This document shows, piece by piece, positions 810-2,374 of a stretch of 2,374 bases of DNA. This DNA is from Escherichia phage ECO95 1-6-1, in sequence record OR845476.1; one strand, written 5' to 3'. The notes beneath the pieces were generated by a model. The model was not told where the DNA came from, searched no databases, and worked only from the letters and a program-made list of their open reading frames with translations. Both the position numbers and the translations under genes were made by a program. The stretch's first letter is position 1. Each line of letters opens with the position of its first letter.

Positions 810-1135
810 AAATCCACCTGTACCGATATTCCGCCGAAGTCATAAGTGCTGGCCGTGATCCACAACCGTGTCCGGCTTTCTTCACCGATTTCCACCGTCC
901 CCGGAACGATGCGCTCATCATCTTCAATCAGTAATTCCATACGGGTAAAAATATCTGCCCGCATGGTCGGGCTTCTCTCTGCGATTAATTCCGTCGCCAG
1001 ACCGCTTTCAATAATGGAATGAATAATGTCCTGCCCGATACTTTTACGGTTATTACATAATTCAGGTTCATTACCGGTATTCAGGACAAAGTCATTTCCC
1101 TGAATTAATAAATCAACATACAGGATTTCATTCAT
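806..1135 (-). CDS. Small acidic phage tail/baseplate-associated protein, function unknown (109 aa; possibly gp25/gpW-like wedge protein or a DUF-type tail protein)
   Basis: Complete ORF, ATG at 1135..1133 and TGA at 808..806. An AGGAG Shine-Dalgarno (minus strand, plus coords 1148..1144) sits 8 nt upstream of the ATG. The start overlaps the upstream stop and the stop overlaps the downstream start, both as ATGA. Product has roughly 20 Asp/Glu against 8 Lys/Arg. Function is inferred only from its position between a tape measure and a baseplate J gene; the segment SIGQDIIHSIIESG weakly recalls gp25/gpW-type proteins, unverified. Confidence 0.7.
   Translation of the reverse strand: MNEILYVDLLIQGNDFVLNTGNEPELCNNRKSIGQDIIHSIIESGLATELIAERSPTMRADIFTRMELLIEDDERIVPGTVEIGEESRTRLWITASTYDFGGISVQVDL
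814..819 (-). promoter_or_regulatory. Shine-Dalgarno-like AGGTGG for the baseplate J gene, lying inside the 3' end of the 109-aa CDS
   Basis: Minus-strand sequence CGGTACAGGTGGATTT-ATG; AGGTGG with a 4-nt spacer (short but usable), start codon overlapping the upstream stop (ATGA). Confidence 0.45.
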
Positions 1136-2374
1136 ACGCCCAGCTCCTGAAACTCCATTAACTGCCCCGGCGTTATCATTTCTTTTGGATAGATATTGAC
1201 AGTATTAATTTTCCGGCTGTTATCCGTCACAGCCCCTGAGTTATTACTGACAGATTTACTGATACCACCTTTATCAATACCTTTTAATTCTCCACCAGTA
1301 GAAAGCGTATTTGTTGTCAGTGCCGACGGTGACTCGTTAGCCAGCGAAATATTGACACCGGGTATTTTATTCAGCTTTTCTACAATCCAGTTCCATGATT
1401 TCAGGAAGCTACCTTTAACGGACTGCCAGATATTATCAAACATGGATACAATACCACCGGCCATCCCGCTTAATGCCTGTGAAGGTGAAAATCCCGTCAG
1501 CAGATTAATAAAGCCGTTCCAGCCGTCCTTAATCCATTGCCATGCCGTCGAGAACACACCGGCAAGCCATTCGACAACGCCAGCCACAGCGGTAAACGCT
1601 GCCGTATTCATCACCGCCGCCTGTACATCGTCCCAGTGTTTAATCAGCAACCAGCAACCCGCCGCAAGCAACGTTATCGCCCCGATCACAAGCAAGACCG
1701 GCCAGCTCATAAGATTAATACCGATTCCGGCCATGATTGCCGCCATACGAACGGCCAGCAACGCTCCGCGCAAAAATTTAAGCGTCGCATTCCAGGCGAT
1801 AACAGCAATTTGTGCCAACCATACCATTGCCGTATATGCTTTCGTGACGGCGGTCATGGCAACCCAGATCCCGCGTAAACCTGCCATGATGAACTTAGAA
1901 GCGCCCATCACAATATTGGCAACCGCGCCCACTGCCGCAAACCCCAGCAACGCCATAGCGGCGTAGCCGATAACACGGGCAATGTTGGGAAATAGCTGCA
2001 TCCATCTGGCAAATGTCTGTCCCATATCCGCCAGACGATTCAGCACCGGATACAATACCGGGATTAGTGTCAGCCCTATTACGGTCTGAATAGCTTTCAG
2101 GATTTGTACAAACCGATCCCACGGTTTCACCAGTTTACTGGCCATCTCCTGCGTACGTTTCAGACCGTCAGATCCGCCCAGTTCGGTGATGTTCCTCTGG
2201 AGAAGCGCCACATTACCGTAAAGGTGTTTGACCACAGCCGAACTGTCACCGAATGCCGCATCCAGTTCCGCCTGGGCTTTCAGATTCCCTTCCAGGCTCT
2301 TGCCGTATTTGCCCTGCAATTTAATCAGCATCTCAGGCATGGACAGCATTTTGCCGGTGGCATCCGTAAAGGAC
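1132..2374 (-). CDS. Phage tail tape measure protein, C-terminal portion (5' end outside window; stop TGA at 1134..1132)
   Basis: The minus-strand frame is open from the window edge (2373) to the stop at 1132-1134; the track's Met at 2349 is internal, since the 8 in-frame codons upstream (SFTDATGK) have no stop. Translation has an N-proximal charged, helical-looking stretch (KAQAELDAAF, LKRTQEMASKLVKPWDRF), then about 190 residues of long hydrophobic Ala/Ile/Leu/Val/Gly segments (e.g. IARVIGYAAMALLGFAAVGAVANIVMGA, SWPVLLVIGAITLLAAGCWLL), then a Trp-rich region and a Ser/Thr/Asn/Gly-rich tail. That architecture, and its position directly upstream of baseplate genes, is typical of tape measure proteins. 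Family call is by eye, no HMM run. Confidence 0.75.
   Translation of the reverse strand, partial: SFTDATGKMLSMPEMLIKLQGKYGKSLEGNLKAQAELDAAFGDSSAVVKHLYGNVALLQRNITELGGSDGLKRTQEMASKLVKPWDRFVQILKAIQTVIGLTLIPVLYPVLNRLADMGQTFARWMQLFPNIARVIGYAAMALLGFAAVGAVANIVMGASKFIMAGLRGIWVAMTAVTKAYTAMVWLAQIAVIAWNATLKFLRGALLAVRMAAIMAGIGINLMSWPVLLVIGAITLLAAGCWLLIKHWDDVQAAVMNTAAFTAVAGVVEWLAGVFSTAWQWIKDGWNGFINLLTGFSPSQALSGMAGGIVSMFDNIWQSVKGSFLKSWNWIVEKLNKIPGVNISLANESPSALTTNTLSTGGELKGIDKGGISKSVSNNSGAVTDNSRKINTVNIYPKEMITPGQLMEFQELGV
1144..1148 (-). promoter_or_regulatory. Shine-Dalgarno (AGGAG) for the 109-aa gene, lying inside the 3' end of the tape measure CDS
   Basis: Minus-strand sequence TCAGGAGCTGGGCGT-ATG; AGGAG with an 8-nt spacer to the ATG at 1135..1133. 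Seen directly in sequence. Confidence 0.55.

Follow-up and report, generated by a model that had tools for sequence, protein, structure and literature searches.

An AT-rich segment across two coupled tail genes in an ESSI-2-like prophage is probably an intrinsic, maintained coding property

Introduction

Does an abrupt fall in GC content inside a phage tail module mark a recombinational joint, or does it belong to the genes in which it lies? The question is raised by a 2,374-nt window (the whole stretch of DNA analysed here), which is part of a Salmonella ESSI-2-like (Peduoviridae) prophage and contains an AT-rich patch at about 1000–1440. The original prediction offered two readings of this patch: a mosaic joint, or a composition that simply follows from an Asn/Ser/Thr/Lys/Ile-rich, low-complexity tail of the tape measure protein (TMP) together with the N-terminus of the adjacent small protein. 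Both have precedents, as polar Asn/Ser/Lys-rich segments have AT-rich codons, and in the Hendrix/Hatfull/Juhala model of phage mosaicism diverged alleles are exchanged through homologous recombination, so that the joints fall in conserved stretches.

Results

The window carries a minus-strand tail module made up of the baseplate J, DUF2590 and TMP genes, and the gene order TMP-DUF2590-J-I-fibre is kept in all annotated relatives. For wider context, a 14.2-kb source locus was assembled from two public contigs showing 100% identity. The 3′ two-thirds of the TMP gene occupies 1132–2374 (minus strand), as seen from the open reading frame list, relatives' annotation and a match to Pfam PF10145 (PhageMin_Tail; E = 3e-23, 83.3 bits against a gathering cut-off of 33.2); in one of the identical contigs (L003) the complete coding sequence runs past the right window end (1132–3099, 655 aa). 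The Pfam domain, a hydrophobic central region and a site between tail chaperone and baseplate genes together place the product in the TMP class. Downstream lie the DUF2590 gene (806–1135, minus strand, 109 aa) and the baseplate J gene (1–809, minus strand), of which the window contains the 5′ two-thirds, with a normal GC content of 55–62%. At 1132–1135 (minus strand) the sequence reads ATGA, in which the stop codon of TMP overlaps the start codon of DUF2590; an AGGAG Shine-Dalgarno motif lies 8 nt upstream of that start, and this arrangement represents translational coupling. The J start codon (809–807) likewise overlaps the DUF2590 stop as ATGA.

Two parts of the TMP C-terminus are relevant to the patch. 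Family alignment and hydropathy delimit a conserved C-terminal module comprising the last 57 residues (1135–1305, minus strand), which is polar, rich in Asn, Ser, Lys and Gly, and contains the motifs TGG, GGI, DNSRK and TPxQLxEWxEL; the tail of the protein is thus more than the low-complexity sequence described earlier. Next to it, the alignment of relatives reveals a variable linker and indel hot spot (1306–1353, minus strand), where relatives carry between 0 and more than 150 extra residues, inserted or deleted at about 1332.

Sliding-window GC analysis and two-breakpoint maximum-likelihood segmentation placed the AT-rich segment, irrespective of strand, at 1006–1453, with 38.6% GC compared to 55.3% outside, its deepest part being the 5′ half of the DUF2590 gene. 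This segmentation gave a log-likelihood ratio of 20.5, whereas 200 codon-block permutations averaged 5.9 and peaked at 14.3, none reaching the observed ratio, so the compositional difference on which the original prediction depended is significant. Over the originally proposed interval of 1000–1440, GC is 0.395 (39.5%), versus 0.569 for 1–999 and 0.532 for 1441–2374. Hand counts made earlier proved accurate, both for the 60-nt lines between 1021 and 1440 (0.35–0.47) and for the comparison lines (0.55 at 121–180, 0.67 at 301–360 and 0.62 at 1561–1620), as did the statement that the shift falls inside coding sequence and away from a gene boundary: the left edge lies within the DUF2590 gene (806–1135) and the right edge within the TMP gene (1132–3099). 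Among 441-nt windows of the 14.2-kb locus, the lowest (0.390 GC) begins at window coordinate 1006, and only 0.4% are equally low; three further patches of 0.39–0.40 GC occur in the same locus, where the trough is not unique.

Measured against the source locus, the drop of 14.8 GC points divides into 9.0 points of amino-acid composition and 5.7 synonymous points, meaning that about 60% is due to amino acids and about 40% to a synonymous shift toward A/T-ending codons. Asn (2.5×), Ile (2.1×), Ser (1.7×) and Lys (1.5×) are enriched in the patch and Ala (0.19×) and Arg (0.26×) are depleted, in agreement with the proposed amino-acid explanation except for Thr, which shows no enrichment. Likewise, the view that the patch simply follows from protein composition accounts for the 9.0 points and leaves the synonymous 5.7 of the 14.8 unexplained. 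The synonymous component is visible as a GC3 of 0.40 inside versus 0.61 outside the patch and is significant in a Cochran-Mantel-Haenszel test stratified by amino acid (p = 3.6e-4). Host-preferred codons, defined by an E. coli-type list drawn from general knowledge, are equally frequent inside and outside (0.50 versus 0.50, p = 0.53), which speaks against relaxed codon selection as the cause.

Phages of E. coli, Cronobacter and Yersinia have a trough at the same homologous position, and so do 61 of 63 related loci across Enterobacterales, whose module GC ranges over 0.40–0.59. The dip is present with low-, mid- and high-GC hosts alike, its GC3 tracks the host, and the first 100 nt of the DUF2590 gene fall under the module mean GC in 98% of loci. 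This recurrence across hosts of 40–59% GC argues for an old, maintained feature; Salmonella phage SI7, a relative that lacks the trough, indicates that it is not obligatory for function. The trough in our window is the deepest of the 63, at 14.8 points where the family averages 6.3, and its lineage may therefore have contributed something of its own. A synonymous GC3 deficit is seen in 56 of 63 loci. At the family level, GC3 is 0.45–0.50 in the trough versus 0.60–0.65 outside despite similar synonymous divergence, with 46–57% of identical-amino-acid codons differing in the trough versus 51–63% outside; low GC3 has been kept although synonymous sites have diverged, which argues that the dip is maintained rather than inherited. 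The synonymous deficit forms a plateau some 700 nt long, running between −360 and +330 relative to the DUF2590 start and with no peak at the start codon, that covers the last ~120 TMP codons and all of DUF2590 and ends exactly at the J start.

Recombination has nevertheless occurred at this site. SNP maps, dS and maximum-chi-square analysis delineate a 398-nt cassette at 1233–1630 (minus strand; TMP residues 491–623), in which the window carries about 96 differences (24%) from Salmonella prophages that are ~99% identical elsewhere. In comparison with one such lineage (L085), there are 0 differences in 1006–1232, about 96 in 1233–1630 and 3 in 1631–2352, an abrupt jump in divergence between near-identical flanks; dS is 1.0 and dN/dS 0.14 within the cassette, versus a dS of 0–0.1 in the flanks. 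Maximum-chi-square tests with more distant E. coli relatives support breakpoints at 1115/1127 and 1630/1684 (three triplets, p ≤ 0.005). Up to 1649 the window follows an L095-type lineage, and from 1631 onward it follows the L085-type, which defines a crossover interval (1631–1649, strand-independent) within a conserved LLIKHWD-coding motif; the L095-type shares the cassette without the right flank and the L085-type the reverse, so that the cassette and its flanks are phylogenetically incongruent. The cassette joints fall in the conserved motifs VTDNSRK and LLIKHWD, and additional cassettes are located at 1713–1909 and 875–1001. Apparent identity breaks at 1060 and 1620 in the E. coli matches H29 and H27 were discarded, being truncations by IS elements (ISKpn26, IS1).

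The earlier suggestion of a mosaic joint is therefore borne out insofar as close relatives do show breaks in identity, and it was misplaced, as these lie at or before 1233 and at 1631–1649 rather than near 1000 and 1440. The breaks and the GC edges (1006 and 1453) thus fall at different places: the lineages do not differ at all over half of the patch (1006–1232), and GC is normal in a third of the cassette (1454–1630). Composition also fails as a marker of the joint, since the GC profile is the same in the alternative allele (0.383 versus 0.395 over 1000–1440), with a GC3 of 0.35 versus 0.38 in the AT-rich part of the cassette. In both alleles, GC3 is 0.35–0.38 in the AT-rich part and 0.49–0.56 in the GC-normal part, so that the composition is specific to neither; the trough itself is present in 61 of 63 loci. 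The two alleles are saturated at synonymous sites (dS ~1) and have the GC step at the same homologous position, from which it follows that the exchange did not cause the AT-richness. Homologous recombination has thus shuffled a cassette that overlaps the patch, independently of its composition.

At the level of the transcript, predicted mRNA folding across the 63 loci is at its weakest between positions −120 and +40 of the DUF2590 start, where the mean 60-nt minimum free energy is −7.3 to −10.7 kcal/mol, compared to about −14 to −15 kcal/mol some 450–600 nt upstream. Folding is hence weaker around this start than in the gene body; the synonymous GC3 deficit reaches well beyond the few tens of nucleotides nearest to it and extends over the −360 to +330 plateau. 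The J start has only a narrow folding dip, without a GC trough. Within the patch, the minus (coding) strand has no sigma-70-like promoter site, and total promoter counts were not above those of shuffled sequences; Rfam returned only two sub-threshold snoRNA chance matches, both outside the patch, and the repeats found were short two-copy matches of chance quality. An antisense gene on the plus strand (open reading frame 1196–1966, 256 aa) was rejected on finding 1–6 stops in all 22 relatives examined. An overlapping conserved nucleotide element was also rejected, synonymous divergence in the patch being like that elsewhere and mildly lower beside the gene junctions: in close relatives, the fraction of codons that differ while encoding the same amino acid is 0.33–0.35 immediately upstream of the start versus 0.40–0.50 elsewhere.

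The DUF2590 protein, whose conserved N-terminus is rich in Ile, Leu, Asn, Asp and Phe, is predicted by structural modelling to have a gp25/GpW-like sheath-initiator fold, the modelled chain showing a gp25-like alpha/beta arrangement with low confidence for the N-terminal 28 residues. Its gene is positioned as expected for a sheath initiator, directly upstream of baseplate J, and its 109-aa product lies within the expected ~100–130 aa. A separate single-sequence AlphaFold model was discarded (pLDDT 35). Searches against PF04965 (GPW_gp25) gave no match even at E ≤ 10, the sole Pfam match being PF10761 (8 members at E ≤ 10). A PDB sequence search returned no relatives, Foldseek against the PDB and an NCBIfam search gave nothing significant, and the literature on DUF2590 yielded one incidental mention. 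DUF2590 consequently differs from the gp25/GpW/TssE sheath initiators in lacking a Pfam GPW_gp25 sequence match or a significant Foldseek match.

Discussion

Our data are best explained, and with good probability, by the patch being the intrinsic, evolutionarily maintained composition of two adjacent, coupled tail genes, and neither foreign DNA nor a separate element. The patch spans the polar C-terminal module of TMP, its variable linker and the conserved N-terminus of DUF2590. In this window, roughly 60% of the GC deficit is forced by the encoded amino acids, and the remaining ~40% is a regional shift of synonymous sites toward A/T that persists at equilibrium across the phage family regardless of host GC. 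Selection for weakly structured mRNA at the coupled DUF2590 start may contribute to this synonymous shift; given the ~700-nt plateau and the unchanged preferred codons, the shift is not fully accounted for by selection on translation initiation or by a relaxation of codon selection.

An insert from an AT-richer phage, replacing the TMP 3′ end and the DUF2590 5′ end so that the GC shift marks its joints, would be in keeping with the real recombination seen here, namely the 24% diverged 398-nt cassette, the crossover at 1631–1649, the maximum-chi-square support (p ≤ 0.005) and the additional cassettes at 1713–1909 and 875–1001. However, joints and GC edges differ, half of the patch is identical between lineages while a third of the cassette has normal GC, and the alternative allele shares the GC and GC3 of a trough that recurs in 61 of 63 loci with GC3 tracking the host; as a cause of the composition, such an insert is very improbable and largely refuted. 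A chance fluctuation without meaning could draw on the three patches of similar depth in the 14.2-kb locus, but permutation never reached the observed ratio, and recurrence at the homologous site throughout the family refutes it, leaving a negligible probability.

The synonymous AT-enrichment could alternatively be a selected nucleotide-level signal: an unstructured mRNA zone from which ribosomes could restart on the coupled DUF2590 gene (and on J), an AU-rich site at which RNase E would enter the long late transcript or decay would begin, or a putative H-NS-binding tract helping to silence the tail operon in the lysogen. The GC3 deficit in 56 of 63 loci despite saturated synonymous sites, the absence of any loss of preferred codons, the folding minimum around the DUF2590 start and the ATGA overlaps joining the three genes all speak for such a signal, as does a patch of 39% GC in a ~52% GC host, reportedly within the H-NS-bound range in Salmonella. 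Its synonymous sites, however, are only modestly more conserved than elsewhere, the patch holds no coding-strand promoter-like site, Rfam family or repeat, the 700-nt plateau is far wider than a start-codon effect, the J start has just a narrow folding dip and no GC trough, and SI7 lacks the trough altogether. We regard a selected signal as unlikely, and its extended form, in which the entire ~700-nt synonymous plateau acts in the late operon as an AU-rich zone setting baseplate-gene translation or decay, or as an H-NS nucleation site, as more doubtful still.

As in amino-acid-driven intragenic heterogeneity, the protein sequence together with the codon usage of the locus predicts the greater part of the GC drop; the patch differs in its extra, family-conserved synonymous AT shift of ~0.1–0.2 GC3. 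The crisp 398-nt cassette with saturated dS, near-identical flanks and joints in conserved motifs resembles classical phage mosaicism, whereas its joints are intragenic, with both in a single gene and neither at a gene border, lie away from the GC edges, and separate alleles of the same composition. The known low-structure effect at start codons spans roughly ±30–40 nt. Work by Kudla (2009), Gu (2010) and Bentele (2013) reportedly describes mRNA that is less structured and poorer in GC near the start codons of bacterial genes, and folding is indeed weakest and GC lowest at the coupled DUF2590 start, but the synonymous deficit here extends over ~700 nt, and no similar trough accompanies the coupled J start next to it. 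H-NS silences AT-rich tracts in horizontally acquired Salmonella DNA, and its binding range there reportedly includes ~39% GC in a ~52% GC host (Navarre 2006; Lucchini 2006). A prophage segment of 450 nt at 39% GC in such a host is alike in composition; it differs in being internal to conserved structural genes rather than an acquired island, and in that the trough also occurs in hosts with 40–45% GC, where it would be inconspicuous.

The finding is an ordinary one and leaves the current view of phage biology unchanged. For annotation, it precisely delimits a recombination cassette and a crossover interval within the tape measure gene, and it provides a domain map of the TMP C-terminal tail with its conserved tip and indel-prone linker, and a model-based, fold-level placement of DUF2590, an uncharacterised family, among the gp25/GpW sheath initiators. 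Its main value is as a caution in the reading of tail modules: a sharp intragenic GC drop can resemble a mosaic joint and yet be, as here, a conserved coding property, while the true joints, 200–230 nt away, carry no compositional trace.

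Gene content and relatives of the locus

Every long ORF of the window lies on the minus strand, which encodes baseplate J (start at 809, open at the left end of the window; Pfam Baseplate_J), a 109-residue DUF2590 protein (806–1135; Pfam DUF2590) and the tail tape measure protein (TMP; stop at 1132, open at the right end; Pfam PhageMin_Tail). Joining the window with two identical contigs gave a 14.2-kb source locus, in which the full-length TMP comprises 655 residues (1132–3099). The window DNA has 100% identity to two contigs submitted under the name Salmonella phage S.Kent 1-2-1, ~80% to E. 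coli ESSI2_ev phages, 74% to Cronobacter phage ESSI-2 and ~68% to Yersinia and Salmonella relatives, all of them Peduoviridae; in E. coli genomes, it is present only as prophages. The gene order in relatives is sheath, tube, holin, endolysin, spanin, chaperone, TMP, DUF2590, J, I, fibre and fibre assembly. In two degraded Salmonella prophages (L090 and L092), J is cut, and PIN_12 and Abi_C genes, a defence-like cargo, come after it (beyond window-equivalent ~494); L092 has also lost most of TMP. A contig labelled as a 'Bacillota bacterium' MAG (JAEWTL010000126.1) carries a module nearly identical to that of E. coli phage ESSI2_ev040, and probably represents an enterobacterial prophage contig that was misbinned.

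An AlphaFold model of DUF2590 obtained with a 39-sequence alignment was usable (pLDDT 80). Together with the size of the protein and its position directly upstream of J, this model points to DUF2590 being, at the fold level, the gp25/GpW-type sheath initiator of ESSI-2-like phages; a Foldseek search with the model returned no significant match, and no Pfam GPW_gp25 sequence match was found.

An AT-rich trough inside coding DNA

The AT-rich patch originally predicted at 1000–1440 was confirmed almost to the base, with maximum-likelihood segmentation placing the low-GC segment at 1006–1453 (0.386 inside versus 0.553). The log-likelihood ratio of 20.5 exceeded all 200 permutations of codon-sized blocks (mean 5.9, maximum 14.3), showing that the GC difference is significant. 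GC is 0.395 over 1000–1440, compared with 0.569 on the left and 0.532 on the right; the patch is the lowest 441-nt window of the source locus. The 60-nt GC counts behind the prediction were correct when recounted line by line, and the shift lies inside coding sequence as proposed, both edges (1006 and 1453) being intragenic. Three further AT-rich patches in the source locus, at 0.39–0.40 GC (−3641..−2790, 3026..3863 and −7319..−6676 in window coordinates), span the 3′ end of the fibre gene together with the fibre-assembly gene, the chaperone/DUF6890/spanin region on the upstream side of TMP, and one end of a contig; GC3 of the chaperone gene is 0.35.

Family comparison of the TMP C-terminus places the conserved WNWIVEKLNKIPGV motif as the most N-terminal TMP element in the patch (rightmost on the plus strand). 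A short linker (~1306–1353) is an indel hot spot across related TMPs, with 0 to >150 additional residues in relatives, which concentrates length variation independent of tail length at one site; the long linkers in this comparison, which drew on homologous columns of three related loci (L019, L031 and L065), are Pro/Ala/Gln-rich. The patch also encodes a conserved 57-residue C-terminal module (1135–1305; motifs TGG, GGI, DNSRK and TPxQLxEWxEL), the ATGA stop/start overlap of TMP and DUF2590 with its AGGAG Shine-Dalgarno sequence, and the first ~43 DUF2590 codons, which are highly conserved (YIDLLI..DF.LN.GNEP.LCNN..SIGQDIIH). Hydropathy shows the TMP tail to be polar, but the conserved motifs and module mean that this tail is not merely low-complexity.

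Using the codon usage of the source locus outside the patch, we predicted GC from amino acids alone, obtaining 0.450 for the patch against an observed 0.393, with 0.540 in the remainder of the three genes. The 14.8 GC points lost therefore divide into 9.0 attributable to amino-acid composition and 5.7 to the choice among synonymous codons, so that the suggested amino-acid origin accounts for about 60% of the drop and leaves the synonymous remainder. Asn (2.5×), Ile (2.1×), Ser (1.7×) and Lys (1.5×) are enriched in the patch, unlike Thr, which had been listed with them; Ala (0.19×) and Arg (0.26×) are depleted. The synonymous shift is significant in a Cochran-Mantel-Haenszel test stratified by amino acid (χ2 12.7, p=3.6e-4), and GC3 falls to 0.40 from 0.61 outside, whereas host-preferred codons are not lost (Fop 0.50 in the patch versus 0.50 outside, p=0.53, scored with E. 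coli-type preferred codons).

Recombination within the tape measure gene

A mosaic joint had been offered as another source of the patch, with identity expected to break near 1000 and 1440. Recombination in TMP is real. In triplet max-chi-square tests with distant relatives, the interval 1115/1127..1630/1684 is where the window specifically clusters with phage ev239 (p≤0.005). For Salmonella prophages gathered via near-identical DUF2590 proteins, overall identity to the source locus is 94–96%, rising to ~99% outside a few short divergent blocks. Against one of these, L085, the window shows 0 differences over 1006–1232, about 96 (24%) over 1233–1630 and 3 over 1631–2352; dS is ~1.0 in the divergent block (dN/dS 0.14) and 0–0.1 in its flanks. 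An exact 36-mer from this block was found in eight IMG/VR contigs, one being identical to the window and one matching the right-hand part only; the six full-length others carry the window's allele and left flank, with 0 differences over 1375–1649 and 13–45 differences per 100 nt from 1650 to the window end. Together, these comparisons make the window like the related locus L095 up to 1649 and like L085 from 1631, which places the crossover within the 19-nt interval 1631–1649, in a conserved LLIKHWD-coding motif. The left boundary of the cassette falls somewhere in the identical tract 1006–1232, which ends at a conserved VTDNSRK motif.

These breaks (≤1233 and 1631–1649) lie ~180–230 nt from the GC edges. 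Half of the patch (1006–1232) is identical between the compared lineages, and the right third of the cassette (1454–1630) has normal GC. The alternative allele is equally AT-rich over 1000–1440 (0.383 versus 0.395 in the window), with GC3 of 0.35 versus 0.38 where the sequence is AT-rich and 0.49 versus 0.56 where GC is normal. Mosaicism is thus no explanation of the AT-richness. Since both alleles keep the same GC profile despite synonymous saturation, the GC step is a property of position in the gene, reproduced independently in both.

A further cassette in the TMP hydrophobic region (1713–1909) is ~43% divergent among otherwise ~99% identical Salmonella prophages, alleles of six of these (L086 and L089–L093) having 0.45–0.46 GC versus 0.49–0.54 in the window. 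About 20 substitutions cluster at 875–1001, in the 3′ half of DUF2590, in L089–L092 relative to the window and L085, and may mark a third short exchange tract. IS elements truncate the region in two E. coli prophage remnants: ISKpn26 (IS5-like) within the AT-rich 5′ half of DUF2590 in L007 (~5075–5130; window-equivalent ~1060–1075), and IS1 within TMP in L006 (~5620–5680; window-equivalent ~1620–1630), adjoining the crossover interval.

Conservation and maintenance of the trough

In a J–DUF2590–TMP nucleotide alignment, the same columns have 0.37–0.48 GC in E. coli, Cronobacter and Yersinia phages; Salmonella phage SI7 is the sole aligned phage lacking the trough (0.53–0.57). A DUF2590 profile scan, taking one genome per species, recovered 71 loci across Enterobacterales and one Aliivibrio, of which 62 with intact TMP and J genes were analysed together with the source locus. 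These 63 loci have module GC values between 0.40 and 0.59, and GC drops at the homologous interval in 61 of them, with a mean drop of 6.3 points (about half amino-acid and half synonymous); the largest, 14.8 points, is that of the source locus. GC over the first 100 nt of DUF2590 is lower than the module mean in 98% of loci, the average difference being 10.5 points. The dip is present in low-, mid- and high-GC host groups, while absolute GC3 follows the host. The amino-acid-corrected GC3 deficit (0.06–0.11) forms a plateau between ~−360 and +330 nt relative to the start of DUF2590 (window-equivalent ~806–1495), covering the last ~120 TMP codons and the whole of DUF2590 and stopping at the J start codon.

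At the family level, 46–57% of codons for identical amino acids differ in the trough versus 51–63% elsewhere, meaning that its synonymous sites are about as diverged, yet GC3 stays at 0.45–0.50 there versus 0.60–0.65 elsewhere. An ongoing force thus maintains the family-wide dip, which is not left over from ancestry.

Across the 63 loci, local mRNA structure is predicted to be weakest between −120 and +40 relative to the coupled start of DUF2590, where 60-nt MFE is −7 to −10 kcal/mol, compared with ~−14 to −15 some 450–600 nt upstream; the J start shows a narrower dip. Selection reportedly favours open mRNA structure at start codons, and the weak folding predicted here is consistent with it; as the full cause, however, start-codon openness is ruled out by the 700-nt breadth of the plateau. 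Synonymous conservation is only mildly higher beside gene junctions. An antisense ORF (1196–1966) was rejected as a gene for want of conservation, and searches for a coding-strand promoter, Rfam family or repeat found none. Candidate causes of the residual synonymous shift are selection acting at the RNA level, binding of H-NS and context-dependent mutation. Overall, the patch is a conserved trough in the composition of coding DNA, ordinary in nature and belonging to known kinds of phenomena.
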